Source: an uncultured Veillonellaceae bacterium (GTDB lineage: Bacteria > Bacillota > Negativicutes > UBA1444). Taken from it: a stretch of DNA of 64,000 nucleotides. The notes beneath the pieces are model-generated. The model saw nothing but the letters and a program-made list of their open reading frames with translations. It searched no databases and had not been told where the DNA came from. Made by a program: the position numbers and the translations under genes. The stretch spans positions 28,192-92,191 of the forward strand of contig CAZRLN010000003.1 of the NCBI GenBank assembly GCA_964601085.1, read 5' to 3'. The stretch's first letter is position 1; each line of letters begins with the position of its first letter. This document shows, piece after piece, positions 10,019-24,104 of the stretch.

Positions 10019-10037
10019 GCCAACCCTTCCCATGCAT

Positions 10038-10060
10038 AGCAAAAAGCCCGCGAAATTCGC
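10038..10060. terminator. Palindromic terminator aagcccgcgaaattcgcgggctt
   Basis: Hairpin followed by a T-rich tract. Sister copy of the 8027-8050 hairpin. Confidence 0.5.
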
Positions 10061-10086
10061 GGGCTTTCATCGTGTGTGGATTTGAA

Positions 10087-10101
10087 TGGTGGAGGCGAGG
10101 G
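10087..10101. repeat. 15-nt direct repeat identical to the tmRNA gene 3' terminus (tggtggaggcgaggg), att-like
   Basis: Exact match to 21969-21983, the acceptor/CCA end of ssrA. Confidence 0.55.
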
Positions 10102-10211
10102 ATGCATATTTACAACCACAACCAAAAGAATTACGCTGTATGAACTGTATGGCAGCGGCAAAAGAGGGCGCTTCCGGGAGCTGCCGGACTAGTAGGGCCG
10201 GTATGAAACAG

Positions 10212-10601
10212 TCAAGGCTGCGGTATTCGGGCAGAGACAAAGTCCGCTATCCGTCGGGCGCATTGTATGGCGGTGGAAACATCGACTTCGGTCAGATCCA
10301 GTTGAAACGGATAACGAGCCTGAACTCCATAATCCGTTAGCTCAAGACAGTCTTCTGCAATCAAGGAAAATGCTGGATCGTTTGTGCTACAGCTTTTGTT
10401 CAGCGCGGTCAGATCGTGGGTCTTGGCGATGCCGATTCCGTGCAATGCTAAAAATGCCTTCAGATACTTTTCTGCGCTCTGCTGGCAATGGTAACAAACG
10501 ATTTCCAAGGGTTTCGGCTTCATGGCAAGAAGATATTCTGCGGATGCAAGGTCCTGCTCTGCATATCGTTGCCATTCCCGGGCGACGGTGCTATTGTTCA
10601 T
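10212..10601 (-). CDS. HEPN-domain protein (toxin of a HEPN/MNT pair)
   Basis: ~130 aa; start ATGAACAATAGC overlaps the stop of the upstream MNT gene. HEPN-like helical protein located directly after the MNT partner. Confidence 0.65.
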   Translation of the reverse strand: MNNSTVAREWQRYAEQDLASAEYLLAMKPKPLEIVCYHCQQSAEKYLKAFLALHGIGIAKTHDLTALNKSCSTNDPAFSLIAEDCLELTDYGVQARYPFQLDLTEVDVSTAIQCARRIADFVSARIPQP

Positions 10602-10962
10602 AGAGCACCAAGCCGTCGGCAACAATTCTGTGTTCCATCGTAGAGGGTAGGACGGAGCGGAGTGCGAAGTCGGCATCGTCATAAACGAGCAGATCGACAG
10701 GCAGGTTGACCTCTGAACTCATAGCCCGGCGCATTAAGCGAAGGGCTTCAATTTTTCTCATTCCACCCAGAGCGGTCACGACACACAGATCAATATCGCT
10801 ATCCGGAGTTGCAGATCCAGAAGCTTGTGAGCCGAACAAGTAGATTTTATGGGGTTGCATGCTCTGGGTGATGGCACGCACAGCATTGTTGATTTCCATT
10901 TGAACTGCAGCGTTCATCAGGGGCGACCTCCTTTGCATTAATGATCGACAATATATTATCAT
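10591..10962 (-). CDS. Nucleotidyltransferase (MNT) antitoxin-type protein
   Basis: LFGSQASGSATPDSDIDLCVV is a pol-beta-type NTase motif (GS...DxD). Confidence 0.8.
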   Translation of the reverse strand: MIIYCRSLMQRRSPLMNAAVQMEINNAVRAITQSMQPHKIYLFGSQASGSATPDSDIDLCVVTALGGMRKIEALRLMRRAMSSEVNLPVDLLVYDDADFALRSVLPSTMEHRIVADGLVLYEQ

Positions 10963-11060
10963 TATAGCATAGGCCCAAGCATGTCAAGGGTCCATATCGG
11001 CGGCTCATCCAATAAAGAAAAAAAGTCTTACCAATAAAGGTAAAACTTTCTTCAAAAAAA

Positions 11061-11072
11061 TGGTGGAGGCGA
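11061..11072. repeat. 12-nt direct repeat matching the tmRNA 3' terminus (tggtggaggcga), second att-like remnant
   Basis: Matches 21969-21980. Lies 31 nt beyond the stop of the PP2C-sensor gene. Confidence 0.45.
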
Positions 11073-11102
11073 TGATTCCGTGTAAGCTGCCTCCGGCCAT
11101 TC

Positions 11103-13046
11103 CTACAGAGGCCGGAAGGCCACCATCGTCATGTCGTCCCGCCGCCGCTCGTCGCCGCGGTAGGTCTCCAGATAGTCGCAGACTGCCGTCAACTGATCAT
11201 CGAGTGGCTTGGCGGCATTTTGCACGACCACTTCCGCCAAGCGCTTTCGTCCGAGCAGTTGCCGTCTGGCCCCGCCCATATGATCTGGCGCGCCGTCGGT
11301 AAACAAATAGAACGCCATGCCGGGAACTACTGCTAGCACGTGTTCGGCAAACGCAGCCTCGGAGCGGATGCTGCCGTAACCGAGGATGGACCGGGTCGCC
11401 TTGATCTCGCGAATAGCGCCCTCCTGCATCAACAGCAGGGGAATCCCGGCGCCGGAGTAGGTCAGCGAGGCCGCCTGCGGATCGTAGATGCAGATGGCCG
11501 CCTCCAGTCCGTCGTCCGACTGGCAGTCGGAGCAATCCTGGCGCAGGCGGGTCCGGACTGCGGCATCAATTGCCTCCAGCATCGCTGCCGGTTCGAGCGG
11601 CCGGCATTCCCGGATGATCCGTTCAAGAGCGGTCGACAGCACGGTGGTCAGCAGCGCGCCAGGCACCCCATGTCCAGTACAGTCCGCCACCACGACCACG
11701 CAGCGGCCCTCGATCTGCTGCAGCCAGTAATAATCGCCGCCGACCACCTGCAGCGGCTCCCAGCGGACTGCGATATCAGCCACCGAACCTTGTAGCGCTT
11801 GCGGGTCCGGCAGCAGCGATTCCTGAATCCGGCGGGCGTAGCGGATACTTTCCAGCACCAACTGATTCGACCGTTCCAGTTTAGCATGGGTAACGCTGAG
11901 TTCATCATGGGTGGCAGTCAGTTCTTCGAGGGTCATCTCCACCTTGTTTTTCTCATGGTCTAGCGCCAGCAATGTCTTGCCGAGCCGACGATTGGCACGG
12001 GCCACGAAGACTGTCGCGCCGGCCAGCACCAACACCAACAGCACCGACAGCAGCAGCACCGGCCAGTACCTTTTCAGTACATCCTGCAGACTGAACTTAC
12101 CCATATCGCGATACGGTCCCAGCTTCAGTTCACGGTACAAATCATGCACCGGCGTATAGTCTCCCGGAATAGTCCAACCGGCACTTTTCGCCGCCCTGGC
12201 TGCCGCACTGCCTGCCGGCATGTTCAACAACGCCGCCGCCACCTGATGTGCCAGTTTGTCCTCAGTATGCCGCAGTTTGGCGAAGGGCCATTCCGGATAA
12301 AGTCGGGTGCTGGCCCGATAGGGAAAGTTCCCGATGCTATTCGCGGCGACATCGCTGCGCAAGCGGAGATCGTTGATGATTTTTATCTGCAGCAGATCCA
12401 GTTTTCCATCCTGCGCCATCCGTTCCAAGATATCGGTCCGGACCAGTCCCACATCGGCCTCACCCCGCAGCACCGACCGCACCGCCGCAGGATGCGTGCC
12501 GCTGAACTTCAGTTCGGCAAAATCCGCCGGATCGAGGCCCGCCGCCGTGAATTCCCGCAGATGCACCAGCCAGCCGCCAAAAGAAGTCTGGTCGACCGCC
12601 GCCACCCGCCGTCCGCGCAGATCCTGGAGCGTATTGATCTTCTTATTTTCGGCGCGGGTGAAGACAACGCCGCCGAACTTGGCAAAATCCCCGTCCGGAC
12701 CGCTGGAGTTGATCGTTGCCAGCCGGGTAAGGCCGTACAGCACTTCCATCTCCACATACTGACCGGTGTTGGCGATCACAAAGTCGACATTTCCGGCGGC
12801 AACTGCCGGATACAGAGTTGCAAAATCGAGTACTTCGATCACAAAACGTTTTTTTAGAGTCTGCCCCAGATATTCGGCCAACGGGCTCCAGGTTACCAAG
12901 GCTGCCTCTTTTCCGCTATTACCCAGAACACCGATCTTGATTGGCTGTTCGTTTTGCGCCGCAGCAACGCCGCTCCAGCAGACCAGGCAAAGCAGTATTA
13001 ACGCCAACAAAAGCGCCGTCGGTCCCGTGCCCCGCCGCCGGCTCAT
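11103..13046 (-). CDS. SiaA-like sensor phosphatase: periplasmic PhnD/SsuA-type solute-binding domain, TM helix, coiled coil, PP2C (SpoIIE/RsbU) Ser/Thr phosphatase domain
   Basis: Signal peptide/TM; then KIGVLGNSG...VDFVIANTGQYV, a phosphonate-binding-like fold; second TM (YWPVLLLSVLLVLVLAG). C-terminal GGDYYWL...VVVADCTGHGVPGALLTTV is a PP2C signature. Confidence 0.75.
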   Translation of the reverse strand: MSRRRGTGPTALLLALILLCLVCWSGVAAAQNEQPIKIGVLGNSGKEAALVTWSPLAEYLGQTLKKRFVIEVLDFATLYPAVAAGNVDFVIANTGQYVEMEVLYGLTRLATINSSGPDGDFAKFGGVVFTRAENKKINTLQDLRGRRVAAVDQTSFGGWLVHLREFTAAGLDPADFAELKFSGTHPAAVRSVLRGEADVGLVRTDILERMAQDGKLDLLQIKIINDLRLRSDVAANSIGNFPYRASTRLYPEWPFAKLRHTEDKLAHQVAAALLNMPAGSAAARAAKSAGWTIPGDYTPVHDLYRELKLGPYRDMGKFSLQDVLKRYWPVLLLSVLLVLVLAGATVFVARANRRLGKTLLALDHEKNKVEMTLEELTATHDELSVTHAKLERSNQLVLESIRYARRIQESLLPDPQALQGSVADIAVRWEPLQVVGGDYYWLQQIEGRCVVVVADCTGHGVPGALLTTVLSTALERIIRECRPLEPAAMLEAIDAAVRTRLRQDCSDCQSDDGLEAAICIYDPQAASLTYSGAGIPLLLMQEGAIREIKATRSILGYGSIRSEAAFAEHVLAVVPGMAFYLFTDGAPDHMGGARRQLLGRKRLAEVVVQNAAKPLDDQLTAVCDYLETYRGDERRRDDMTMVAFRPL

Positions 13047-13855
13047 CCACCCACCTCGCTACTCTCCACCCGGTTTCGTCCGTTTTGTTTCGCCGCATAC
13101 ATCGCCTCATCCGCCCGGGCCAACATCGCGTCAAACCCTTCGCGCGCCCTTGCGGCGACTACGCCGATACTGACGGTGACGAAAAAAGCTCCCTCTGGGC
13201 CCGAAATCGGGCAGGCTTCCATCGCGGCACGCACCCTTTCGGCTACTTCCAATGCCTCGGCCAGTCCAGTGTCCGGCAGCAACACGCCAAACTCCTCGCC
13301 CCCCAGCCGCCCCAGGCTGTCGGCCAACCGGATCTGTCCGCTGCAAACCTGGGCGAAACAGCGCAGAGCCTCGTCGCCGGCAGCATGCCCATATCGGTCG
13401 TTGACCGCCTTGAACCGGTCCAAATCCATCATCAGCAAAGAAAGCACGTGACTGCCGCGCTCAAGCTTGGCCGATTCATACTGGCCGAGCTCATAAAACT
13501 TCCGTCGGTTAAAAACGCCGGTCAGGGCGTCCGTCGTCGCCATCCGCCGCAGCTCATTCTCCAGCTTTTTCCGCGCTTCGATCTCGACCTCCAGCGCCTG
13601 GTTCAAAGTCTGCAACTGGACTGTCTTTTCCTGCAATTCCCGGGTGACCTGGCGCAACTGCTCCTGCTGGCGATCACTGACCCGCAACAGTCGCTGTTGC
13701 TCTCGGAAACTTTTCCGGTACGACGTGACCAGGCCATGCAGATTTTCCAATACTTCCTCGCCGGAACGGCTGCAAAAATCCTGTTTGAGAGCCTCGACCA
13801 GAGACTCCGCCTGCTCCACGACCTGTTCTTCGTTAAAATACAGGCTGTGCTTCAT
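13043..13855 (-). CDS. Diguanylate cyclase (GGDEF), SiaD-like, with N-terminal coiled coil
   Basis: GGEEF active site plus RxxD-like region; no sensory domain. Start overlaps the stop of the upstream gene. Confidence 0.8.
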   Translation of the reverse strand: MKHSLYFNEEQVVEQAESLVEALKQDFCSRSGEEVLENLHGLVTSYRKSFREQQRLLRVSDRQQEQLRQVTRELQEKTVQLQTLNQALEVEIEARKKLENELRRMATTDALTGVFNRRKFYELGQYESAKLERGSHVLSLLMMDLDRFKAVNDRYGHAAGDEALRCFAQVCSGQIRLADSLGRLGGEEFGVLLPDTGLAEALEVAERVRAAMEACPISGPEGAFFVTVSIGVVAARAREGFDAMLARADEAMYAAKQNGRNRVESSEVGG

Positions 13856-14238
13856 GGCGCCAGTTTGATGGACTCAAATTCCACCGCTTTCAGGTCTTCT
13901 GAAAAATCTTCGCCAGATTCCTCAATGGTGTCGTCCCCGTCCTGAAAATACCAATGAACCCGGATCTTCGACCCAGTTTCTGCTGCCGATTCGAGCAGCT
14001 GGAAGATATTCATTAGCGCTTTGGCGCTGCTGCTGTTGAAATACGCCAGACGGAAATCCACCTGCAGTGGCTCTTCAGGTTCCTGTTCGACGATGCTTTG
14101 CATCTCTTGGAGAATCGGCCCCCAAAAAGCGGCGGCGTCTTCCGGGTACGCCTCACCGGTAAAAGAAATAGTTCTGTTCGCGACATCCAGCCGCACTTCC
14201 GGCGAACGGTCTGTGGCTGCGATCGTTCTCGATTCCAT
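13852..14238 (-). CDS. DUF1987 / SiaC-like partner-switch phosphoprotein
   Basis: ~128 aa after trimming to the RBS-supported start (MESRTIAAT...). AYFNSSSAKALMNIF resembles the DUF1987 core around the phospho-Thr/Ser site. Acidic C-terminus. Confidence 0.6.
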   Translation of the reverse strand: MESRTIAATDRSPEVRLDVANRTISFTGEAYPEDAAAFWGPILQEMQSIVEQEPEEPLQVDFRLAYFNSSSAKALMNIFQLLESAAETGSKIRVHWYFQDGDDTIEESGEDFSEDLKAVEFESIKLAP

Positions 14239-14249
14239 CTTCTGCCCCC

Positions 14250-14831
14250 CTATATGTAGGCTTTGATACAAAAGAAAGTCTTTTGCTCATCAAGGATCAT
14301 GAAGTCAAATTCAATAGGACTGCTGGACCTACGGGCAATTTCCAGCAATCCTATGCTCGCGCCCTTGCTCTCGGCTTCCGGCGGCTCCTTCAACTTTTCC
14401 TTGTAATAGGCCTTGATGCCTTCTTTATCCAAACTCTGGATCAGCTCCAGGCGTGACCTCAGCTTCACCGCATCCTGCATCGACACCGTATTGCCGCAGA
14501 CCACAAAGAACTGCCCGCCGTCGCTGCCGACAGAGATTACGCCGGAGCTGATCTCCGGTTTCTTCTCTCCATCCGTTTTACCTGCACCCTCCTTCAACCG
14601 CTCCGAAGAATAGCGGATGATGTTTTGCACTTGTTCGACAAAAATGGAGAACACTTTCTTTGTCGTGTTCAAGTCGGTTTCTTCACTGGCCAGCTTCTGC
14701 TTCAACACATCTCCCATCGAAAACAGCAGCCCTTCCGAGATATAGCCGGCAAAGCTAAAAAAAATCTGCTTATCCTTGAGATCCTGCTCAAAGCGATAAT
14801 ATTCGGTTGCTATCATAGGGGTTCCCTCCAT
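14250..14831 (-). CDS. SiaB-like GHKL-type Ser/Thr kinase (anti-sigma-factor RsbW/SpoIIAB-like ATPase fold)
   Basis: N-box-like EQVQNIIRYS, G1-like VGSDGG, G2-like GASIGLLEIARR. 193 aa, first gene of the four-gene unit. Confidence 0.5.
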   Translation of the reverse strand: MEGTPMIATEYYRFEQDLKDKQIFFSFAGYISEGLLFSMGDVLKQKLASEETDLNTTKKVFSIFVEQVQNIIRYSSERLKEGAGKTDGEKKPEISSGVISVGSDGGQFFVVCGNTVSMQDAVKLRSRLELIQSLDKEGIKAYYKEKLKEPPEAESKGASIGLLEIARRSSSPIEFDFMILDEQKTFFCIKAYI

Positions 14832-14908
14832 CGTTGTTAAATCGTTGTTGAATCAGCTAATTCTATTCATTTCGGCAATTGGCGAAAATATTCCTGCTGC
14901 TGCTATTA

Positions 14909-15982
14909 TCACGGAGTAGCTGAACGCTGATTCGCAAAGGACGGAAACGGATGTTCAATAGCTCCCATCCGCCAGGCGGCGGGAATCACTACCAGATGCT
15001 GCCTGACCTGAGCGAGTCTGCGCAGCAGCCTAAGAACCTGCGTGTTGCTAAACTGCACAGAACGCCGTTGTTTGGCAAAATGGAGCGATATTGGCGCGCC
15101 TTGTAGCCATTTTGCTTGCGCCGCAACAATCCCACCTTCCACTTCGACAGCTTTGAGCAGATTCAGGATGTCCGCTTTGGTTCGCCGTTGCAGCTGATCA
15201 TTTCGGTTGATTTGTGACGCCGCCTTGCGGTAGGAAACATATCCAAAGGAACCAAAGATGCGGCGGGACTGACGGGCCAGTTCGTCATGACCGATGCATG
15301 GAGTGGTCATGAAATGTTGCAGGCTTCGGTCCGGAAAGCCATGTTTTCGTGCAAGACTGGACAGCCTGCCCTTTTTGCATTGCACTTCCAGCCGTAGTAG
15401 TGTATCTGCCTGTTGATAGATTTCTTCATCCAGTCCTGTGAATCGGGATCGTAGTGCTGGACCACGGTGATACAACTGGACTGAACCACTCTTGTTGCCT
15501 GCCTTAAAACTGATCCAGCCTGCTTGGGACTGATTATTGGCACCGACAGGCAGATAGCCGCGCCGCGCCAAATCAATATAGCGGTCAGCTGAAGGACGGG
15601 CTGGTGAATTGCCGACGCAGGCATCGGAAGCATAATCGATTCTGCAAGCCAGCCAATATGGCAGCGATGGAAGCTCTACGTTAGTGATGGTGCGCAATAG
15701 TTCGTCGAATTCGGGGATAAGTTCCGCGAAGTCTGCAGGATTAAACAGCGCCATGGGATCTGCAGATTGACTCATGACGTGGAGCGGGTTCATGGCAATT
15801 CGAATAAAGTGACCGGTAAAACGTTGCGTGGTAATATGGTAGAGCGATATTCTGGTCAAGCCGGATGAAGAATAGTCGTTTGTGCTCCATGATGCGTGAT
15901 CAGGCGGCGCGCCTAGTTCCCGCTGGAGTTCTTCGTATGTAAAAGAAGTCAGTTGTGTGCTGACATCGGTCGTATGAATCAA
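14909..15982 (-). CDS. Hypothetical protein, possibly a replication-initiation protein of the island
   Basis: 357 aa, basic C-terminal half, no recognisable enzyme motif. Divergent from an AT-rich 760-bp non-coding region. Confidence 0.35.
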   Translation of the reverse strand: MIHTTDVSTQLTSFTYEELQRELGAPPDHASWSTNDYSSSGLTRISLYHITTQRFTGHFIRIAMNPLHVMSQSADPMALFNPADFAELIPEFDELLRTITNVELPSLPYWLACRIDYASDACVGNSPARPSADRYIDLARRGYLPVGANNQSQAGWISFKAGNKSGSVQLYHRGPALRSRFTGLDEEIYQQADTLLRLEVQCKKGRLSSLARKHGFPDRSLQHFMTTPCIGHDELARQSRRIFGSFGYVSYRKAASQINRNDQLQRRTKADILNLLKAVEVEGGIVAAQAKWLQGAPISLHFAKQRRSVQFSNTQVLRLLRRLAQVRQHLVVIPAAWRMGAIEHPFPSFANQRSATP

Positions 15983-16415
15983 GACAAAAGCCCCCTGTTT
16001 GTCATCTTCTATAATCGATATAATAGCATATATTTAAAGGATTAAACAATGTTTTTATACTCAAAAATAGAAACAGTGCTATAGCTTCACTCTTTTTTAC
16101 TTCAAATGATGTTCTATATAACTGGACATGTTCCGAGTTCCTGTTTGGAAAGTGAACTGAACCGGATGCGGCTATGGGACATATATATAGTTACTGCCAT
16201 AATCCGCGCTTTTCAAGAGGTAATGGCTTAGCGACAATAAAGCAAACGCGATGCAACCTGCTGCGATATGCGTTGTTGTCATCTTCCTCGACTTTTAGAG
16301 GCGCGAATTAGTGTTAAAACCTGCCGAAATGGCCCGTTTTCTCGTTATTCAATAACTGTATATTATTTTCCTGTATAAACCTATTGCTTTCGTGAAATTT
16401 CATTTTCAATCCGTA

Positions 16416-16445
16416 AAACGCCCTATAGGCGTTATTTTTTTTGCA
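16416..16445 (+). terminator. Perfect palindrome aacgccctataggcgtt followed by a T8 run, inside the AT-rich intergenic region
   Basis: Stem-loop plus U-tract in + orientation with no annotated upstream gene. Confidence 0.4.
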
Positions 16446-16746
16446 ATATTTCCCGCCCGGAAATAGGTTAGACACTGGTTAGTGCTACTAGGGGAAAACG
16501 GCCCTGGGTATCCAGTTGAAGAAGGAAATAGGGATGGGTGTCATCTTCGCTGCCGGCCAGTCGGCAGTGGCAATGAAAATGAAGGAGGGAACCGGCAGAT
16601 GCATTGTAAAGTTAGAAAAACACAGAGGTCGCGATCACCGCCGTCAAAGGAGGCACGGCAACTCAAGATTGAGCCTGTTTCGTTCAAACAAGGACGGATC
16701 AGGCTCTTTTTTATTTTTTAAGCAAAAGCAAAAGGAGCGATTCAAG

Positions 16747-17589
16747 ATGGAAAAAGATCTCGTAAAAACAGCGATTCAAAATTTGCTTGACCAGTTCGCC
16801 CAGCAGGATTTCCCGGCTGAAATAGGTTGGCAGATTATCCGAAGACGGTCTGGCCTGCATGCTGTGCCTTCAGATTCCTGGAGTCCCGGCAACCGTTGGA
16901 TCATGCTGGCTTGCGGTACGACGGATGCAAGAGGCTTCGGTCAGTGGCATCAGGTAGGCAGAAGGGTCAAGTCCGGTAGCAAGTCGCTTTACATTTCCGC
17001 ACCAAACACCAGAAAGATCAGTTCAGATGACGAAGACGACCCGGAAACGGCAAGGACAATCGTGACCGGATTTCGCTGGATTCCTGTGTTTCGGATTGAA
17101 GATACATCCGGGCATCCAGTCTGTACTGCCGACTACACACCTCAGATATTGCCGCCTTTGTTTGATGTGGCTGCAAAGCTTGGCGCTTCAGTGAAGTGGC
17201 AACCGTTTGACGGCAAGGCGCTAGGGCGATACAGACCATCCAGCAAAGAAATCGTTTTGTCGGATCAGACGGCGCTGACTTATTATCACGAAATCATGCA
17301 CCATTTGGATTCACAGATTGAACCGATCCGACCCGGGCGCTTAGCGGAAGCAGAAATGATTGCCGAATTCGGCGGATCGGTCCTTTGCTCGATTCAGGGA
17401 ATTTCCGGCTACGAATCCGGCAGCTACCGCTACCTGCAATCCTATGCGGTCGGAAAAGAGCCGGAAGCAGTTCTTCGCGGCATCATGGCGATTGCTGCCA
17501 GGGTGGAAAAGTTGGTCGGAATCGTACTGGACGCAGCGGAACGACCTGTAGGAAGAGCAGAAACATTACCGACTTCGATCTCAGCATAA
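16747..17589 (+). CDS. ArdC-like antirestriction protein (N-terminal ssDNA-binding DUF1738-like domain plus C-terminal zincin HExxH metallopeptidase)
   Basis: N-domain pattern GNRWIMLACGTTDARGFGQWHQVGRRVKSGSKSLYI resembles ArdC. C-terminal YYHEIMHHLD is an HExxH motif. Start set at MEKDLVK; the track ORF begins upstream at 16516. Confidence 0.5.
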   Translation: MEKDLVKTAIQNLLDQFAQQDFPAEIGWQIIRRRSGLHAVPSDSWSPGNRWIMLACGTTDARGFGQWHQVGRRVKSGSKSLYISAPNTRKISSDDEDDPETARTIVTGFRWIPVFRIEDTSGHPVCTADYTPQILPPLFDVAAKLGASVKWQPFDGKALGRYRPSSKEIVLSDQTALTYYHEIMHHLDSQIEPIRPGRLAEAEMIAEFGGSVLCSIQGISGYESGSYRYLQSYAVGKEPEAVLRGIMAIAARVEKLVGIVLDAAERPVGRAETLPTSISA

Positions 17590-17618
17590 GCAGATAAAAA
17601 GAGAGGGAGGCAAAATCC

Positions 17619-18059
17619 ATGAAATACATTCCTCGTTACGACATCCGGCTCATCCGCGACGGCAGAATCTCCGTCAATGCCACGCCGATCGTGCGGACGC
17701 CGCAGGATACGCTGCCTGTATTGGAGCCTGAGTTGTCCGAACTCGCCTATGAAAAATTCGTTGCTCTGGCGCTTTCGACGAAAAATCATGTTATCGCCGT
17801 CCTGCCTGTCAGCAGTGGCAGCTTGAATGCGTCCGTCGTGCACCCGCGCGAAGTGTTTCAACGAGCCATTCTGGCCAACTGTGCCAGCCTGATTTTGGCG
17901 CACAACCATCCGTCAGGCGATCCATCGCCAAGTCCAGAAGACATTGCTCTGACCCGCAAGTTGATCGACGCAGGTCGGTTTCTGGATATTCCTGTGATCG
18001 ATCACATTGTGCTTGGCTACGGTCGGTATGTCAGTTTCAAAGAATGCGGTCTATTATGA
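17619..18059 (+). CDS. RadC-like JAB/MPN-domain protein (DUF2466)
   Basis: LILAHNHPSGDPSPSPEDIALTRKL is the canonical RadC motif; RBS GAGGGAGG. Confidence 0.85.
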   Translation: MKYIPRYDIRLIRDGRISVNATPIVRTPQDTLPVLEPELSELAYEKFVALALSTKNHVIAVLPVSSGSLNASVVHPREVFQRAILANCASLILAHNHPSGDPSPSPEDIALTRKLIDAGRFLDIPVIDHIVLGYGRYVSFKECGLL

Positions 18060-18070
18060 AGGAGGAGAAG

Positions 18071-19036
18071 ATGATCATGTTAAACAGCAAAGTAATCGTT
18101 CCAGACATCGACAAACTATCCTATAAAGATTGGCTTCAGGTTCGTCGGAGCGGCATCGGCGGATCAGACGCAGCGGCGGCGCTGGGACTTTCGACATGGA
18201 AATCCGCATTGGAAATTTGGCAAGAGAAGGTTTCGGGCCAAAGCCAGCCAAGTCAGGAAAACGAATCGATGATCTGGGGCCGGATTATGGAGCCGATCAT
18301 CACCAGGGAGTTTATCCGGCGCACAGGAAAAAACATCAAGCCCATGCGATCAATGCTGCAGGCAACAAACTGGCCTTGGATGCTGGCCGATCTCGATGGG
18401 CTGATTGAAGACCCGCAGCGTGGAATAGGAGTCTTCGAAGTCAAGACGGCATCGGCTTTCAAACAGGGCGAATGGGCCGAAGATCGTTGCCCGGATGCTT
18501 ACATGCTGCAACTAGCTCATTATATGGCGGTTACAGGTCTATCCTATGCAGTGATCTGTGTTCTGATCGGCGGCAACAAGCTGCAATGGATCACTGTGGA
18601 CAGGGATGAAGAACTCATTACCAGCTTGGTTCAGTTGGAAAAGCGTTTCTGGCAATATGTTCTGATTCAGACACCACCGCCCGTGGACGGCAGCGTGGCT
18701 TGCGCAGAACTGCTGTCTCGCAAGTATCCGTTGTCATCCAATGCCGCGCCGATGATCCTGCCTATGGACGCGGACAGCTGGATACAGGAGTACCTGCAGG
18801 CAAAGGCGGAGGAGGAAACCGCTGTTGAACGCAAACGGTTGGCCGAAAACCGGATAAAGGAGGTGATGAAAGAGCATGAAAAAGCAACCAGTCCAAGCGG
18901 CAGGCAGGCCAATTGGAAAACGGTTCAGTCCACCCGGATTGATTCGGCGAGGCTGAAAAAAGAAGAACCGGCGCTGTTCGAGAAGTTCTCTACAACTTCA
19001 TCGACGCGCCGGTTTTCCATTTCCGAATGCAAATAG
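18071..19036 (+). CDS. YqaJ-like viral recombinase-domain exonuclease (lambda Exo / PD-(D/E)xK family)
   Basis: SYKDWLQVRRSGIGGSDAAAALGLSTWKSALEIWQEK is the YqaJ N-terminal signature; start after AGGAGG. Confidence 0.75.
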   Translation: MIMLNSKVIVPDIDKLSYKDWLQVRRSGIGGSDAAAALGLSTWKSALEIWQEKVSGQSQPSQENESMIWGRIMEPIITREFIRRTGKNIKPMRSMLQATNWPWMLADLDGLIEDPQRGIGVFEVKTASAFKQGEWAEDRCPDAYMLQLAHYMAVTGLSYAVICVLIGGNKLQWITVDRDEELITSLVQLEKRFWQYVLIQTPPPVDGSVACAELLSRKYPLSSNAAPMILPMDADSWIQEYLQAKAEEETAVERKRLAENRIKEVMKEHEKATSPSGRQANWKTVQSTRIDSARLKKEEPALFEKFSTTSSTRRFSISECK

Positions 19037-19104
19037 CTTCACAAATATTATATCAAATTGCAAAGGAGGATGGGCGGCTTTGATCATAGGCCGCCCAAAT
19101 TTTT

Positions 19105-19620
19105 ATGTTGAACAACGCAAAATTGAAAGACACTCTGTCGCAAATAATGACAGCCAAAACAGCCGAACCTATTCAACTTCATCCAATGGCGGCTGCAGAA
19201 CGGACTGGTACCGAGTTGACCTTACCGTCGCTGACGGTCGTTCTGTCTTTCTCGCTATCGTTTGACGAGGCTCAATCCCAGATGAAACGAATACAGGAGA
19301 TGGTCAGAGACTTGGGGATTCAACCAACTATTCAGCATCAACCTGCACCGGCGCTAGCAGGTCTGCCACAGGCGGCATCAAAACCGGGATCATTGGCAAC
19401 AAGTGCTCCGGTGCGTATTCAGACTCCATTTAAGCATGCCGCGTCGCCTGCGCCGATGACAGACAAACAGAAGAGAATGATTTTCGCGTTGACTGCAAAA
19501 AAGGCGTTGGAGGCAGAACAAGTTGAAGAATTATTAATAAAACAAGTCGGACATAAGCGCGGCAGCGATCTGACCAAAACGGAAGCAAGTTCGCTCATCA
19601 GCACGCTACTCGCCATGTAA
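19105..19620 (+). CDS. Hypothetical protein; candidate annealing/accessory protein partner of YqaJ
   Basis: 171 aa, Pro/Ala-rich linker, conserved-looking C-terminal helical segment. No motif recognised. Confidence 0.35.
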   Translation: MLNNAKLKDTLSQIMTAKTAEPIQLHPMAAAERTGTELTLPSLTVVLSFSLSFDEAQSQMKRIQEMVRDLGIQPTIQHQPAPALAGLPQAASKPGSLATSAPVRIQTPFKHAASPAPMTDKQKRMIFALTAKKALEAEQVEELLIKQVGHKRGSDLTKTEASSLISTLLAM

Positions 19621-19726
19621 AGAACTTTACCTTGTCCTGCCGAGCAATTACGACTAAAAGTAAAATGGTTTGACATAGTGATTGGTGTTGTGATATGCTT
19701 GGCAGGACAGAAGGAGGTGAAAGGCT

Positions 19727-20131
19727 ATGGGCAATACCCCGGGAAAAAGAGATGATGCGATGTTACGATCCCTGCAGCAAAACTTGCCAGTCATTCGCAA
19801 GGCGGCGAAACTGAGTCAAAAGGATCTGGCATCGACGCTGGGCGTATCTCGCCAGACGGTTAACAACTGGGAAACCGAGAAGACTTTCCTGAATCCAACG
19901 CAGGGATTGGCCCTTATGGCAATAATCCAGTCATTCAGCAGTGTTTATCCCGGCGTGAAAAAAATCGCCGAAGCTTTTTTTGAACTGCAGGATGATGCAA
20001 TGGTGAAAGCCGCTAAGTTACGGAGCCCGCTGGAAGGAATAATCGCTATGTATATCGCAGGACGAATTGCCGCGAATCCAAAAGAGGACGATCACGACGA
20101 AGAAGACAAGGAAGAATTGTCAGTAGGCTAA
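19727..20131 (+). CDS. XRE-family helix-turn-helix transcriptional regulator
   Basis: LSQKDLASTLGVSRQTVNNWE is an HTH_3 motif; strong RBS AGGAGGTGA. Confidence 0.75.
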   Translation: MGNTPGKRDDAMLRSLQQNLPVIRKAAKLSQKDLASTLGVSRQTVNNWETEKTFLNPTQGLALMAIIQSFSSVYPGVKKIAEAFFELQDDAMVKAAKLRSPLEGIIAMYIAGRIAANPKEDDHDEEDKEELSVG

Positions 20132-20155
20132 TCGCAGAACGATTCAAAGGAGAGA

Positions 20156-20455
20156 TTGTATTTGGTATCAGAGACATCGTCGCAGCAACATATCAACGAC
20201 AAGGAAGCACAGATCAATAAAGCGACCAAGGATTCAGGAAGTACTGTTTGTGTCGCCGTATCCATCGAACGGCTGGATCTTCGGGCAAAGAATTATGCCA
20301 AGCAAGAAAAGGTGTTCATGGTGGCTGATGATTGTGGCGAAACAGCAGCAAGTTGCAGAGTTGGATTGGAGCCGTATGTGAACCTGTTGGCTCGGATATG
20401 TGAAAATGGGCTGGCAGAGGCTGAGTCTTCCGGGAAGGAGATGTTCGTATCGTGA
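20156..20455 (+). CDS. Hypothetical small protein, overlaps the recombinase start by 4 nt
   Basis: 99 aa; GTGA start/stop overlap with the downstream recombinase gene. Confidence 0.3.
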   Translation: MYLVSETSSQQHINDKEAQINKATKDSGSTVCVAVSIERLDLRAKNYAKQEKVFMVADDCGETAASCRVGLEPYVNLLARICENGLAEAESSGKEMFVS

Positions 20456-22041
20456 GCAACACGACTGCTGTCATCTATGCAAGGTTTTCGTCCGATAACC
20501 AGCGCGAGGAGTCGATTGATGGCCAAGTCCGTGCCTGCCGTAACTTTGCCAATCAGCACGGATATAATATTATCGAAATCTATGCCGACCACGCCAAAAC
20601 CGGAACAAATGATAGGCGCCCTGAATTTCAGCGCATGATTCAGGATGCGAAGGCCAAAAAGTTTGCAGTTCTGCTCGTCCACAAGTTCGACCGATTTAGC
20701 CGTGATAAATGTGATTCAGCCCTTTACAAGCGCGAGTTGAAGCGAGCAGGGGCTCGCATCATTAGTGTTTGTGAACCTTTAGGCGATTCGCCGTCTGATG
20801 CATTAATGGAAACCGTGATTGAAGGCGTTGCTCAGTTTTTTTCGGAGAATTTGTCGTTGGAAGTTATGAAGGGTATGCTAGAAAACGCTCACAAATGCAT
20901 GCATACTGGAGGTAAACCACCGCTCGGCTACGATGTCGATCCGGCGACAAAAAAATATGTCATCAATCAACGTGAGGCAGAAGCTGTCACGTTGATTTTC
21001 ACTCGGTATTTGTCAGGCGCTGGGTATGATGCTATCATTCGTGAGCTTAATGCCTCGAATTATAGGACAAAGCTTGGTAAGGTCTTTGGAAAAAACTCGA
21101 TCCATGATATTCTGGCAAATGAAAAATATACGGGAACTTACATTTTTAACAGGGCAGCGGCAAAAGATGCCGACGGCAAACGCAATAACCGGCGGGCAAA
21201 GTCGGTGGAGTCAATCATGCGGATTCCGGGCGGGATGCCAACTATTATTGATCAAGAAAAGTTTGAAGAGGTCCAGAAAAAAGTCGCTGGCAACAAACGC
21301 CTTCCCGGTAGCTATACAGCTAAAGAAAACTATTTATTGAGCGGCCTTGTTGTTTGTGGTGAATGCTTGAAGAACGGATTATCACACACGATGGTAGGGA
21401 ACCGGGTATTTTCCGGCAGAAATAAGAGGCTCTATGTGACATATAGGTGTTCGAACAAAGATAGAACCAACTCCTGCATTAACCGTGACGTTCGAAAAGA
21501 ATATCTAGAAGACTATGTGATCCATTCTCTTACAGACGTCTTTTTTGACGAAGGAACGATTTCCTCTGTAGTCGCAAGCGTTAACCAACGTATTGCCAGT
21601 TCGTGCGACCAGCTGAATTGTCAGTTGGAAACTGCCAAGCTTGAACAAATCGATGTTTTGAAGCAGATGGACCATATTGTTGATGCCATTGCCAATGGCT
21701 TCAAGCATGAAACGATGCTGAAAAAGTTCACTTCGCTTGAACAAGCGAAAGCGATGGTAGACGCAAGAATTAAAGAGATCGCAGAAAAACAGCAACAAAA
21801 AACTGTCTCAGAAGCTGATCTGAAACAGTTAGTCATTGCTGCAAAGTCGCAGCTAATGTGGTTGAGTGGACCGGAGCTGAAGGACTTCATCAAGGCATAC
21901 GTCAAGAGGATAGTCGCATACCAAGAAAAAATAGTAGTCGAGTTTCAGTTTCCGGTTGTGGTTTTGAGTGGTGGAGGCGAGGGGAATCGAACCCCTGTCC
22001 AAAAGCATCGCCACATGGCTTTCTCCGAGCGCAGTCGGTAA
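20452..22041 (+). CDS. Large serine recombinase (resolvase/invertase catalytic domain, recombinase domain, zinc ribbon, coiled coil)
   Basis: N-terminus AVIYARFSSDNQREESIDGQ carries the catalytic Ser; Cys-rich ribbon (CGEC...C...C). The last ~24 codons are encoded by the 3' end of the tmRNA gene. Confidence 0.85.
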   Translation: MSNTTAVIYARFSSDNQREESIDGQVRACRNFANQHGYNIIEIYADHAKTGTNDRRPEFQRMIQDAKAKKFAVLLVHKFDRFSRDKCDSALYKRELKRAGARIISVCEPLGDSPSDALMETVIEGVAQFFSENLSLEVMKGMLENAHKCMHTGGKPPLGYDVDPATKKYVINQREAEAVTLIFTRYLSGAGYDAIIRELNASNYRTKLGKVFGKNSIHDILANEKYTGTYIFNRAAAKDADGKRNNRRAKSVESIMRIPGGMPTIIDQEKFEEVQKKVAGNKRLPGSYTAKENYLLSGLVVCGECLKNGLSHTMVGNRVFSGRNKRLYVTYRCSNKDRTNSCINRDVRKEYLEDYVIHSLTDVFFDEGTISSVVASVNQRIASSCDQLNCQLETAKLEQIDVLKQMDHIVDAIANGFKHETMLKKFTSLEQAKAMVDARIKEIAEKQQQKTVSEADLKQLVIAAKSQLMWLSGPELKDFIKAYVKRIVAYQEKIVVEFQFPVVVLSGGGEGNRTPVQKHRHMAFSERSR

Positions 22042-22317
22042 TTTGTATTTCGCAGTTCCGACGCCCACCGACAGGCTCCGGTTCCGCTATCCCAGAAAAG
22101 TTTCCCTATCAGCCCTCCGGGAGTCAGGCTTTAAGGTATCTCGCATTGCGGCGCCCAGATCCCCTGCCGCGAGAAGGGCGGGGGCTGAACGTTAGCAGGT
22201 TAAGCTGCTAAAGCGTATTCGTTGTTTGCAGTTAGCTGTTTCCACCGTATTTCGGGCTGGTGGGATCCCGGCTCGCTTACCATGCCACAACTGCCCCTGT
22301 CGAAACCAGTACGCCCC
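21969..22317 (-). ncRNA. ssrA: tmRNA (ssrA)
   Basis: Reverse complement begins GGGGGCGUACUGGUUUCGACAGGGGC and ends GGACAGGGGUUCGAUUCCCCUCGCCUCCACCA (T-arm plus acceptor/CCA). Internal tag reading frame GCA AAC AAC GAA UAC GCU UUA GCA GCU UAA (ANNEYALAA) at 22200-22229. smpB lies upstream on the same strand. Confidence 0.9.
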
Positions 22318-22425
22318 CGTATAGGGTCGTAGGTTGGCAAAAACGAATCGCAACATGTTTACAAAATTATTATAGCATAGCTGACGCCGAAGGAGAAGGG
22401 GAGGTGTGGAGCACATTTGCCAGAG

Positions 22426-22896
22426 CTAAATCTTTTCATCCATGCAGATTTGCTTTGGTTTGAGCGAATAGGCCAAAGCGACTTCCTGCGGCGGTTTTTC
22501 GATCATGATTCCAGGATGGTCTCCTTCATCTTTCCGCAGAGGGGCTGCATTGCTCTGTGAAGCGCGGGCCGGAAAAGCAGCCAGGGCAGCTGCGGTGGAA
22601 TCGAAAATTTGAAACAGCCCGGTTAATCCGGTCATGTCGAAGATTTCCATGACGCCGGGGTTGAGACAGCAAAGGCTTAACTGACCGCCAGTCTTAACGG
22701 TTCGTTTTAGCGTCGAAAGAAATACCCGCAGCCCCATGCTGGATATGTACCCGGTTTTGGAAAAATCACAGAGAATGGCGTCTTGTCCGTTATCCAGCAG
22801 TTGACGGAACAGTTGCTCCAGTTCCGGCGAGGACGAAACATCGATTCGGTCCGCCAGTTCGACAACGCAAATGTTATCCAGTTCTTTTACCTGCAT
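22426..22896 (-). CDS. STAS-domain protein (anti-sigma-factor antagonist SpoIIAA-like)
   Basis: ILCDFSKTGYISSMGLRVFLSTLKRTVKTGGQLSLCCLNPGVMEIFDMTGL is a STAS fold signature; C-terminal unstructured tail. Confidence 0.7.
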   Translation of the reverse strand: MQVKELDNICVVELADRIDVSSSPELEQLFRQLLDNGQDAILCDFSKTGYISSMGLRVFLSTLKRTVKTGGQLSLCCLNPGVMEIFDMTGLTGLFQIFDSTAAALAAFPARASQSNAAPLRKDEGDHPGIMIEKPPQEVALAYSLKPKQICMDEKI

Positions 22897-22912
22897 CTCC
22901 TGTGTTCTCCTT

Positions 22913-23551
22913 CTATGCCGATTCGGGTTTTCTTGTCGCCGGAACGATTAAAACTTCGCTGCAGTTGATCCGTGTTTCCAAATTGTTCTTGATTTTGTCG
23001 ATGCTCTGTTGAACTTGTTGCATTTTTGCGGCGCCATCGAACTCGAGAAAAATTTCGATGTAGGTTTTTCCGGTGTCCCGACGCAGACGAATCGCGTGGC
23101 AGTCTACGTAGTCGGCGAAATGGGAGGAAAGTTCGCGTAAAACCTGAGCCTGTAATGCTTCATCCGGTTCGTAGTAATGATAAACACTGGTCAGACCGGC
23201 TGCAGCGAATCGGTCCCGCACTCCCGGTTTTAACATGCAAAAAGCCATCTGCCCCTGCAGACGGTGAAAGTCTTTGAGGACCGCGACAAACATCGACAAT
23301 CCGTCATCGGAGACAAATTCGGTTTGCGAAAAGTTGCAGAGGATCATCTTCGTTCCGTCGTCAATAAGCCGCCGTATGCGAGATTCCACCGCCGGGACTG
23401 CTTCGCCTTCCATTTGCGCGGGCACCAGGATAGCCTTTGTCGCACCATGTGTATTGACTTCGATTTCCAATAGCTCGACCCTCCAGAACTCTGATGCGAC
23501 ATATTTCCATAATGAGTCCTTGAAATCCTGCTGAAAGAAATGGATTGACAT
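22913..23551 (-). CDS. STAS-domain protein fused to a cation-diffusion-facilitator C-terminal-like (ZT_dimer) domain
   Basis: N-terminal MILCNFSQTEFVSDDGLSMFVAVLKDFHRLQGQMAFCMLKPGVRDRFAAAGL is STAS-like. C-terminal HAIRLRRDTGKTYIEIFLEFDG...IDKIK resembles the CDF cytoplasmic domain. Confidence 0.5.
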   Translation of the reverse strand: MSIHFFQQDFKDSLWKYVASEFWRVELLEIEVNTHGATKAILVPAQMEGEAVPAVESRIRRLIDDGTKMILCNFSQTEFVSDDGLSMFVAVLKDFHRLQGQMAFCMLKPGVRDRFAAAGLTSVYHYYEPDEALQAQVLRELSSHFADYVDCHAIRLRRDTGKTYIEIFLEFDGAAKMQQVQQSIDKIKNNLETRINCSEVLIVPATRKPESA

Positions 23552-23630: not shown

Positions 23631-24104
23631 TTATTGCCGCTGCCGGTCCCGCAGTGTTCGTTCGACTTCGCGCTTGGCGTCCTTTTCCGCAGCGGACTGG
23701 CGTTTGTCATACAGGTCTTTGCCGCTGGCCAGCGCCAGTTCCACTTTGGCCAGACCGTGCGACAGATAAATTTTCAGCGGCACCAAAGTGTAGCCTTTCT
23801 CGCGGGTCTTGCCCAGCAAGCGCAGGATTTCCGATTTGTGCATCAGCAGTTTGCGATTGCGGCGGGGTTCATGATTGAATCGATTGCCCTGGTCATAGGG
23901 ACTGATGTGGGCGCTGATCAAATAAAGTTCGCCATTTTCGATGCGGGCGTAGGAATCGGTCAGGTTGGCCCGGCCGCCCCGGAGCGATTTGATTTCGGTG
24001 CCGGTCAACACGATGCCGGCCTCGAAAGTTTCATGTATGTGATAATCGTGCCGCGCTCTACGATTTTCGGCGACGATCTTTATGCTTTGATTTTTTGCCG
24101 GCAC
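23631..24104 (-). CDS. smpB: SsrA-binding protein SmpB
   Basis: [32 protein letters not shown] is the canonical SmpB sequence. Confidence 0.9.

Follow-up and report, generated by a model that had tools for sequence, protein, structure and literature searches.

A large serine recombinase and a probable integrative island at the tmRNA gene of an uncultured Veillonellaceae bacterium

Described islands at tmRNA genes and the locus in question

In Dehalococcoides, tandem genomic islands lie downstream of ssrA, the gene for transfer-messenger RNA (tmRNA), and are marked by a 20-bp repeat of its 3′ end (PMC3146451). Their DsiB protein, a serine recombinase of ~540 aa, is CcrB-like, and the 3′ end of its gene "always" extends across the attachment (att) site into ssrA or the neighbouring island, a tail for which no function was inferred; the arrays contain several repeats as well as integrase-less units that are possibly mobilised in cis (PMC3146451). 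Similarly, staphylococcal cassette chromosome (SCC) elements have 15-bp direct repeats and form composite islands with at least three repeats, in which integrase-less modules are carried along (PMC7029739). Here, we describe an island at ssrA in a 64,000-nt stretch of DNA from an uncultured Veillonellaceae bacterium (GenBank assembly GCA_964601085.1, contig CAZRLN010000003.1, positions 28,192 to 92,191; hereafter "the window", to which all unprefixed coordinates refer). We conclude that positions 10099–21980 very probably constitute one integrative island of ~11.9 kb, which was put into the 3′ end of the tmRNA gene by its own large serine recombinase (LSR).

Serine integrases at tRNA or tmRNA genes (tDNAs) have been reported before. 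One survey placed 14 of 297 at such genes, with the remark that "experimental proof will be required" (Mageeney et al, 2020, PMC7192596), and a preprint on tycheposons, which describes islands mostly beside tRNA or tmRNA genes, counts a large serine recombinase in 27 of 937 elements. Elements of this kind are rare and little studied but already described, and the present example is well supported.

[quoted passage not shown] However, the Dehalococcoides insertions fall in the T-loop (ssrA 333/334) and have a 20-bp repeat, whereas the insertion point here appears to be 11–12 nt from the 3′ end, with an obligatory repeat of 12 nt. None of the domains of the six-gene Dehalococcoides module (DsiA small recombinase, RecF-, ParB-, and Mom-like proteins) was found in the island, which instead features an XRE regulator, a 97-aa open reading frame (ORF), YqaJ, and RadC; phylum and cargo differ as well. 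With the SCC elements (CcrAB/CcrC), the island shares insertion at the 3′ end of a conserved housekeeping gene that remains intact, and CcrB is the best NCBIfam model for its recombinase. Unlike SCC, the target is ssrA rather than rlmH/orfX, a single recombinase replaces the ccrA/ccrB pair, and the score of 185 bits against the CcrB equivalog cutoff of 900 means that the enzyme is not a Ccr orthologue (it is also below cutoff for CcrC, with 105 of 900 bits, and for CcrA, with 82 of 700).

Phage LSRs, such as those of A118/LI, TP901-1, SPbeta (SprA), phiC31, and Bxb1, have the same catalytic, recombinase, and zinc-ribbon domains with a coiled-coil insertion, and similar pseudo-palindromic att sites of ~50 bp around a central dinucleotide, but they target protein-coding or intergenic sites. 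Tyrosine-integrase islands at tDNAs (Islander, PMC4383910) likewise carry a copy of the tDNA 3′ end and regenerate the gene, and their far end is recognisable by the displaced fragment. They differ in recombinase family and chemistry, and here identity beyond a 2-nt crossover would not be required.

The inserted unit, the empty site, and the limits of the element

An intact ssrA on the minus strand, with the tag ANNEYALAA, was identified by ARAGORN and Rfam (195 bits, full length). The 15-mer TGGTGGAGGCGAGGG, the reverse complement of the tmRNA 3′ end CCCUCGCCUCCACCA, is made up of ACCA, the 7-nt acceptor strand, and 4 nt of the T-stem. Exact matches are found at 21969–21983, within ssrA, and at 10087–10101 (the outer copy). 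A third, inner copy at 11061–11075 has two mismatches to the 15-mer, its 12 exact nucleotides being 11061–11072. No further copies with up to two mismatches are present in the 64-kb window, and the two matches with three mismatches are no more than chance would give (mean 1.77). Similarity of the outer pair goes beyond the 15-mer, over 27 nt with two mismatches (10075–10101 and 21957–21983), which is 12 nt past the end of ssrA; the inner and outer copies have 14 nt in common (AATGGTGGAGGCGA). The first-pass annotation, made from the letters of the window, had noted both the 15-nt repeat and the 12-nt copy, and our scan of the window confirms them. The mosaic GC content that it described is likewise borne out, with 0.35–0.43 in the flank encoding a GNAT protein, ~0.50 in the HEPN/MNT gene pair, 0.57–0.66 in the Sia genes, and 0.37–0.53 in the remainder. 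The features on which the argument turns are the following:

10043–10067, no strand assigned: native ssrA terminator hairpin (host DNA), a perfect 12-nt inverted repeat AAAGCCCGCGAA/TTCGCGGGCTTT
10070–10125, no strand assigned: predicted attL, the left end of the unit; host arm 10070–10096, GA 10097–10098, P′ arm 10099–10125
11018–11072, minus strand: inner relic; 12-nt ssrA 3′ end (11061–11072), T-run, and terminator-like hairpin (11053 down to 11018)
20452–22041, plus strand: large serine recombinase, the element integrase, 529 aa (Pfam Resolvase, Recombinase, Zn_ribbon_recom)
21952–22007, no strand assigned: predicted attR; P arm 21952–21978, GA 21979–21980, B′ arm 21981–22007 (tmRNA T-arm)
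21969–22318, minus strand: ssrA (tmRNA), its last 10–12 nt now from the element

The SmpB protein of the window (23631–24104) is 88–92% identical to SmpB of uncultured Veillonellaceae and Negativicutes metagenome-assembled genomes. In the closest "empty" relative (L003), the stretch immediately after ssrA is that of positions 10036–10086 of the window, namely a short trailer (TTCAAATCCACACACGATG) and the terminator hairpin. Thus, the segment from 10.1 to 21.97 kb separates ssrA from its native terminator, which now lies 11.9 kb away with the island in between. The first-pass annotation had proposed a comparison with related genomes for an empty site, in which ssrA would be followed directly by the GNAT side. 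We sought such sites by exact look-up, in metagenome contigs, of the STAS protein encoded beside ssrA (22426–22896). Three contigs of the same species with an identical STAS protein (L252, L253, and L259) join ssrA directly to the trailer, the terminator, and the GNAT end, and this junction equals, base for base over the compared region, the attB predicted from recombination between the attL and attR of the window. An exact look-up of the GNAT protein returned occupied sites only. The presence of empty sites within the species upholds the proposal of an island inserted site-specifically at ssrA.

The same ssrA also holds other DNA. In L255, where ssrA is 100% identical over 1197 nt, it is occupied by a different element (L255:955-6740) with a 530-aa recombinase that is 46.8% identical to that of the window; the recombinase ORF ends ~190 nt before ssrA, with a terminator of its own in between. 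Upstream of this recombinase are ORFs of 81, 141, and 827 aa of unknown function. Yet another flank adjoins ssrA in L261, and three contigs (L002, L254, and L260) break exactly at the ssrA 3′ end. The ssrA 3′ end is a busy insertion hotspot in this species.

The surroundings of ssrA vary in further ways. Two STAS-domain genes, one with a ZT_dimer domain, stand between smpB and ssrA in the window (22426–23551), where L003 has a single 464-aa ORF; the usual direct adjacency of smpB and ssrA is broken in the window's lineage. L003 carries its own insertion of ~970 bp right after ssrA (L003:12269-13317), which contains one 174-aa ORF and neither a recombinase gene nor a good P′ arm. On its two sides, ~57 nt comprising the ssrA trailer and terminator are duplicated, and the distal copy retains just TGGTGG-CGA of ssrA (with 3 nt deleted), its identity ending at GA.

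The exact HEPN protein of the island is listed on 332 contigs, and the comparison of boundaries covers ten of these contexts. In all ten, the sequence corresponding to 20601 down to ~10099, with the inner copy, MNT, and HEPN inside, is 99.9–100% identical to the window, and HEPN is linked to the unit running from the Sia genes to the recombinase. Past the outer copy, the flank consists of the GNAT and aminotransferase genes of the window in L232, L233, L235, and L238, of a diverged version of that flank in L234, and of unrelated DNA starting with a SIMPL-family gene in L236, L240, L237, L239, and L241. In L234, the element has 1 mismatch in 8437 nt, compared with 48 in 9887 nt of flank (Fisher p = 4e-12), and there are no mismatches between 10069 and 14242. 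In L237, L239, and L241, mismatches cluster at 10046–10075, and the next one is found only at 12221. These breaks place the left end of the unit between 10076 and 10099, that is, at the outer copy; both the density of single-nucleotide polymorphisms (SNPs) and the homology to other contigs shift between 10075 and 10099.

At the right end, homology to a sister element (L081; recombinase 83% identical, DNA 90.5% identical over 6.1 kb) is lost exactly after TGGTGGAGGCGA at 21980, beyond which unrelated DNA follows. L155 has the same recombinase-to-ssrA junction, with an element end that is 96.7% identical to the window and an ssrA that is 90.2% identical. From these comparisons, the mobile unit extends over about 10099–21980 (11.9 kb), with HEPN/MNT and the inner copy included. 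The first-pass annotation had drawn the limits differently, taking the inner copy as the boundary of a newest element of ~10.9 kb and the outer copy as the mark of a ~1-kb HEPN/MNT remnant. Neither assignment holds: the nearly invariant unit reaches the outer copy, HEPN/MNT travels within it, and the P′ half-site described below is at the outer copy and not at the inner one.

Beyond the ten contexts, the left end shows additional variation. After its left arm, the sister element L081 encodes a 264-aa protein with PF00905 (Transpeptidase), by size and family a candidate class-D beta-lactamase, and a ParA-like ATPase (L081:6255-8084); left-end cargo modules appear to be swapped between elements that are otherwise 90–100% identical. 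In L246, L247, and L248, MNT was called but no HEPN gene between GNAT and MNT, possibly owing to a frameshifted toxin gene. L237, L239, and L241 have a further relic, GCCTCCACCA, in their SIMPL-gene flank, ~100 nt past the terminator that follows the outer copy, and in L077, a 16-nt ssrA-end repeat is located just 50 nt downstream of ssrA; such relics seem common.

Recombinase, att sites, and alternative readings

The 529-aa recombinase comprises the domains PF00239 (1.1e-29), PF07508 (9.9e-21), and PF13408 (1.7e-9), matches the integrase family phrog_95 (1.3e-114), and has its catalytic Ser13 (YARFSSDNQ) aligned to Ser12 of the TP901-1 integrase. Its ORF has no stop codon before ssrA, which it enters for 73 nt on the opposite strand; it ends 62 nt past the predicted crossover, with its last 24 codons within ssrA. 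On predicted excision, the tail would change such that the protein lengthens from 529 to 540 aa.

Homologues that are 40–51% identical are also convergent with ssrA, with ORFs extending into it. They include L082 and L083 (beside secG-rnr-smpB-ssrA), L047, L067, and the IMG/VR proviruses L084–L086. The record of the Moorella phage MCACPph1 (OR602863), for which a literature search found no paper, carries a copy of the 13-nt repeat TGGTGGAGGCGGG at either terminus, with ssrA at the right-hand one. MCACPph1 and L084–L086 resemble the window element in their recombinases (42–45% identical) and in the ORF that runs into ssrA, but they are phages or predicted proviruses of 20–65 kb, MCACPph1 with tail and head-decoration genes, whereas structural, packaging, and conjugation genes were not detected in the island. 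Another homologue (L087) has the same geometry at tRNA-Arg, and its relative L088 has a matching attP-type junction. Among homologues gathered by protein similarity alone, about two thirds have the ssrA-end core at the end of the ORF, two have tRNA-Arg, and the remainder show no tDNA there. By these comparisons, the recombinase belongs to a clade found mostly at tmRNA or tRNA 3′ ends. The first-pass annotation had left open whether an earlier integrase was lost or the serine enzyme uses an unusual site. The serine recombinase as integrase is borne out by its family and att geometry, and the site is not unusual, given relatives of the same geometry at ssrA and tRNA 3′ ends.

Overlap of the ORF with the att site is a frequent feature. 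The ORF passes the crossover by 29–152 nt in 17 homologues, but six others (47% identity) stop 118 nt short of it and L255 has an intervening terminator; we therefore rejected the idea that overlap is obligatory. Two loci have a different makeup. In L156 (2240-2320), a 77%-identical recombinase is followed by a P arm and then by a 32-nt fragment of the ssrA 3′ end with one mismatch; 28 nt after this fragment lies the convergent 3′ end of rlmH (SPOUT, PF02590), the SCCmec target. This arrangement suggests that ~20 nt of the T-arm side may suffice as a target, or that the locus is part of a composite array. One IMG/VR contig of 49.5 kb contains two recombinases (L089:3091 and L094:7485; 41% and 38% identical to the window protein), each followed by the ssrA-end core and an identical P′-type sequence, which could represent a terminal repeat or a tandem of two elements.

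Serine integrases are modelled to act on pseudo-palindromic att sites of ~50 bp, composed of ~25-bp half-sites around a central dinucleotide, with the zinc-ribbon motif 5 bp nearer to the centre in attB than in attP half-sites (PMC3783163). The ends of the island have the anatomy that such an enzyme, with a 2-nt crossover and ~25-bp half-sites, would be expected to leave. The host arm of attL includes the displaced last 10 nt of ssrA, and the P arm of attR contains TTGTGG at 21956–21961 together with the replacement last 10 nt. A TTGTGG(A)TTTG motif, 13 nt before the tDNA end, is conserved in the element-side arm of all these homologue loci at ssrA or tRNA. Scanning metagenomes for the exact pattern of a P-type arm plus core yielded 66 loci, about half of which run into ssrA; in the remaining ones, ssrA identity ends exactly after position 12 and is followed by an inverted repeat of the first arm. 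One example is L181, which has a recombinase gene upstream and reads TTGTGGATTTGCA-TGGTGGAGGC-GA-ACCGTGGTATA-GCAAATCCACAA; its attP-type junction, TTGTGGATTTGCA-TGGTGGAGGCGA-accgtggtataGCAAATCCACAA, has inverted repeats symmetric about the dinucleotide 11–12. Arm symmetry is perfect in several relatives, for example L181, L168, and L196. The centre of symmetry, 11–12 nt from the tDNA end, corresponds to the GA at 21979–80 and 10097–98, at the junction of T-stem and acceptor stem. Moreover, five independent junctions, namely the inner copy, L081, L088, the distal L003 copy, and many of the scan loci, lose identity to the tDNA at 12 nt from its 3′ end. We infer that crossover takes place on this GA. 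Since identity stops exactly 12 nt in at several junctions, long direct identity would not be needed for recombination.

A half-site matrix, trained on other loci (12 P and 4 P′ arms), was further scored over the 17-mers of the window. The P arm of the window scores 11.2. The outer P′ arm TTTACAACCACAACCAA (10109–10125) scores 8.26 at the predicted register. Only 0.08% of the 17-mers in the window rank as high, and the value falls inside the leave-one-out range of the training arms; the two arms have the private variant AACCACAACC in common. Together, the matrix fit and the comparative boundaries identify the outer copy as the putative attL of the recombinase.

The strongest competitor to a single island is a tandem insertion, in which the inner copy would be the live left boundary of a 10.9-kb element and 10087–11060, with HEPN/MNT, a dead remnant; in a softer, SCC-like form, both sub-units would still be separately movable. 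Such arrays are documented in Dehalococcoides ssrA islands (PMC3146451) and SCC elements (PMC7029739), and the inner copy does look like a junction. It matches ssrA precisely up to and including GA, the point at which identity is also lost in true crossover junctions, and on the minus strand it reads TCGCCTCCACCA, TTTTTTT, a 15-pair hairpin, and a T-run, which resembles a displaced native ssrA end with its terminator. It lies 30 nt past the stop codon of the SiaA-like gene, at a GC step from 0.44–0.50 to 0.60–0.66, and is followed by a perfect TTGACA-N17-TATAAT promoter for MNT-HEPN. We rejected a chance match, given 12–14 exact nucleotides in direct orientation within a 12-kb island, the terminator, and the GC step. 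On the other hand, neither side of the inner copy fits a half-site at any offset from −6 to +3 (the right arm scores −17 and the left −8.5), and, compared symmetrically about GA, the P arm of the element matches the P′ arm at the outer copy in 12 of 14 positions (positions 12–25) but that at the inner copy in only 4 of 14. HEPN/MNT moves with the rest of the unit at 99.9–100% identity into different flanks, the break in SNP density is at the outer copy, and the contexts read show neither the 10.9-kb part without HEPN/MNT nor HEPN/MNT alone at ssrA. We therefore consider a tandem quite unlikely. Within a single island, the inner copy, which is unchanged in L231 and all ten compared contigs, is an internal relic resembling a displaced ssrA end with a native-type terminator rather than a site of the recombinase. 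Most economically, it may reflect accretion, by which an older junction and a neighbouring HEPN/MNT unit with a good P′ arm were absorbed; a comparable history has been put forward for units lacking an integrase in Dehalococcoides arrays and SCC composite islands.

A less probable alternative, to which we give very little weight, is that the segment is old, immobile chromosomal DNA and that the "empty" contigs arose by deletion through homologous recombination between the 27-nt repeats. A repeat of this length with two mismatches could allow rare RecA-dependent or slippage deletion, and a circular form was not observed in the exact attP search of IMG/VR. However, the element in L234 is 40-fold less diverged than its flank, the element is also present beside unrelated flanks, a 97%-identical variant is found at a 90%-identical ssrA (L155), and the site holds another LSR element elsewhere in the species (L255). 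The divergence contrast, the varied flanks, L155, and L255 all point to repeated, recent site-specific traffic, and the integrative island may well be active at present.

It is least credible that the insertion was made, as in classical tmRNA islands, by a tyrosine integrase that has since disappeared, the serine recombinase being carried along or serving some other purpose: most islands at t(m)RNA genes do use tyrosine integrases, with 44.5% of tyrosine-integrase elements versus 4.9% of serine-integrase elements at such sites (PMC7192596), and serine integrases were stated not to be known to target tDNAs (Islander, PMC4383910), but no tyrosine-recombinase (Phage_integrase) domain was found by Pfam in the ORFs of 10.1–22.0 kb and no gap is large enough for one, the recombinase gene abuts and overlaps att in a layout that relatives repeat in many unrelated contigs, and the att arms are inverted repeats about one dinucleotide, which is an LSR signature.

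For the single integrative island, we propose the following mechanism. The recombinase would pair an attP of ~50 bp on the circular element, consisting of the P arm (...TTGTGGTTTTGAG-TGGTGGAGGC), GA, and the P′ arm (GGGATGCATATTTACAACCACAACC), with an attB made up of the ssrA trailer, the final 10 nt of the gene, GA, and the T-arm. A 2-nt staggered cut at GA, at the T-stem/acceptor-stem junction, and exchange of half-sites would follow. The P arm would thereby bring a copy of the tmRNA terminus, keeping ssrA intact, and the original terminus would be displaced to the far end of the island, where it appears as the "direct repeat". HEPN/MNT and the SiaABCD-like cyclic di-GMP (c-di-GMP) module would ride as cargo. 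The inner 12-nt copy would be a fossil junction, an ssrA end and terminator from an earlier host or neighbouring unit, swallowed as modules accreted, after which the element came to use the outer P′ arm. The predicted circle junction is ...GGTTTTGAGTGGTGGAGGC-GA-GGGATGCATATTTACAACC, and the predicted restored attB is ...TGTGGATTTGAATGGTGGAGGC-GA-GGGGAATCGAACC.

Under this mechanism, the P arm must hold the last 10 nt of ssrA because a crossover within the gene leaves the element to supply the new end of ssrA. These 10 nt and the 2-nt crossover make up an obligatory repeat of 12 nt; the three extra Gs of the outer copy and the 12-nt trailer similarity are beyond it. The long repeat would then reflect repair of the tmRNA gene rather than a requirement for homology, and such a gene-repair origin resolves the puzzle of the long repeat without a lost integrase.

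Several points weigh against this account. Recombination is predicted from sequence, and the crossover dinucleotide follows from arm symmetry and the end points of identity. With a score of 16.6, the host-side arm of attB falls into the attP register; under the model of PMC3783163, attB would then resemble attR and be a poor integration substrate. The attP junction, or circular form, was not found by an exact search of IMG/VR, nor is this P arm present in any of the 66 scan loci. The ten compared contigs may partly represent one clonal population. Finally, the clade is not uniformly tDNA-specific: a Pelosinus homologue (51% identical) and L091–L093 and L095 on viral contigs have no tDNA at the ORF end, and we rejected the notion that all close homologues are ssrA-specific.

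Directionality, cargo, and implications

The two arms of attB differ in how they fit the phage LSR model. The chromosomal arm, TTCAAATCCAC... after ssrA, is a P-type half-site that is nearly identical to the P arm of the element, a departure from phage LSR sites, whereas the ssrA side weakly fits a shifted register: its score at offset −5 is 2.5 (top 1%), and the unrelated offset +1 gives a higher one, 5.6. That the tmRNA T-arm is a B-type half-site, shifted 5 bp inward, is therefore a weak suggestion.

Of the 55 SmpB-anchored loci with a visible flank, about 10 have a similar trailer after ssrA, with the motif nTCAAATCCAC, and no recombinase gene. This element-arm motif (compare 10070–10086 of the window) is seen after ssrA in L005, L006, L007, L009, L020, L028, and L031; the trailers of L008, L014, and L016 are unrelated. 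C-terminal remnants of a recombinase are kept at L011, L163, and L188. Such trailers were probably left behind as scars by earlier serine-recombinase elements and today act as the host-side arm of attB. As this arm is P-type, attB would be equivalent to attR, and attL to attP, in half-site composition. It is conceivable, although we think it rather unlikely, that the clade lacks the usual asymmetry between attP × attB and attL × attR, integration and excision being the same reaction. If this were true, control would be exerted only by expression, via the XRE regulator and perhaps the 3′ end of the recombinase mRNA, and the short P-type "scars" that many Negativicutes have beside ssrA would represent landing pads from earlier elements, available for reuse. 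Such intrinsic bidirectionality is reported for Ccr recombinases. In the integrated state, the 3′ end of the recombinase mRNA is complementary to tmRNA; a regulatory role of this antisense stretch is speculative.

The remaining genes of the island are as follows:

10212–10601, minus strand: HEPN-domain protein, toxin-like partner of MNT, 129 aa as called (Pfam HEPN, 1.8e-26)
10591–10917, minus strand: MNT nucleotidyltransferase, antitoxin-like, 108 aa as called (Pfam NTP_transf_2, Polbeta; PADLOC PDC-S09)
11103–13046, minus strand: SiaA-like protein, periplasmic binding domain plus PP2C phosphatase (Pfam Phosphonate-bd, SpoIIE; NCBIfam SiaA 190 bits, below cutoff)
13043–13855, minus strand: SiaD-like GGDEF diguanylate cyclase (Pfam GGDEF, 1.3e-42; NCBIfam SiaD 182 bits, below cutoff)
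13852–14238, minus strand: SiaC-family regulatory phosphoprotein (Pfam SiaC, 1.5e-39)
14250–14816, minus strand: SiaB-family protein kinase, DUF6272 (NCBIfam SiaB_fam_kinase 199 bits, cutoff 85)
14909–15982, minus strand: unknown protein, 357 aa (no match in Pfam, PHROGs, NCBIfam, or PADLOC)
16747–17589, plus strand: possible anti-restriction protein, 280 aa as called (phrog_7245, 1.7e-10, residues 140–215; the ORF begins at 16516)
17619–18059, plus strand: RadC-like JAB-domain protein (Pfam RadC, 1.4e-41)
18071–19036, plus strand: YqaJ/RecE-like recombination exonuclease (Pfam YqaJ, 4.5e-37; phrog_434, 1.1e-97)
19105–19620, plus strand: unknown protein, 171 aa (no family match; syntenic in L081 and L232)
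19727–20131, plus strand: XRE-type helix-turn-helix regulator (Pfam HTH_3; PHROG repressor families)
20162–20455, plus strand: small 97-aa ORF overlapping the recombinase start codon (no family match)

The accessory genes named in the first-pass annotation (HEPN/MNT, a signalling module, RadC, YqaJ, XRE, and a recombinase) hold up in Pfam, PHROGs, and NCBIfam. Its label "ArdC" is weakly supported: for the protein at 16747–17589, the phrog_7245 match points to a possible anti-restriction function, and no Pfam match was found. MNT scores 50 bits against the NCBIfam model MntA_antitoxin, which is under the cutoff of 60. Single-sequence AlphaFold models of the proteins at 14909–15982 and 16747–17589 were unusable (predicted local distance difference test values of 33 and 36).

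The Sia operon (11102–14817) is 88.3% identical at the nucleotide level to a chromosomal operon of another metagenome bacterium (L227:5024-8739), and homology stops at the operon ends; the L227 operon is flanked by housekeeping genes, namely a response-regulator gene and pstB/phoU. On this comparison, the operon looks like cargo captured from a chromosome. Next to the recombinase, the XRE regulator is a candidate repressor of the recombination module. The 97-aa ORF is kept directly upstream of the recombinase in L081, L155, L156, and the P0005 contig (for P0005, by gene calls alone) and might be a directionality or accessory factor. PHROGs found no capsid, terminase, portal, or tail genes in the island, its matches there being limited to the integrase, repressor-type, RecE-like, RadC-like, and weak anti-restriction families. 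Pfam, NCBIfam, and PHROGs likewise found no relaxase, coupling protein, or type IV secretion genes, with three ORFs having no family match.

The biology of the cargo, with HEPN/MNT and a captured SiaABCD-like c-di-GMP switch, is of secondary interest. What sets the locus apart is that one species offers an occupied site, an empty site, a sister element with another left arm, and a different element at the same site. It also yields a testable pair of 50-bp attP and attB sites with a predicted crossover dinucleotide. The part of the target inside the gene, the tmRNA T-arm and acceptor end, is highly conserved across the Bacillota sampled, and such enzymes could therefore serve as broad-host integration tools that need no landing pad. 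Finally, the locus explains how a long, "tyrosine-like" repeat may come from a serine recombinase, namely as a by-product of gene repair.

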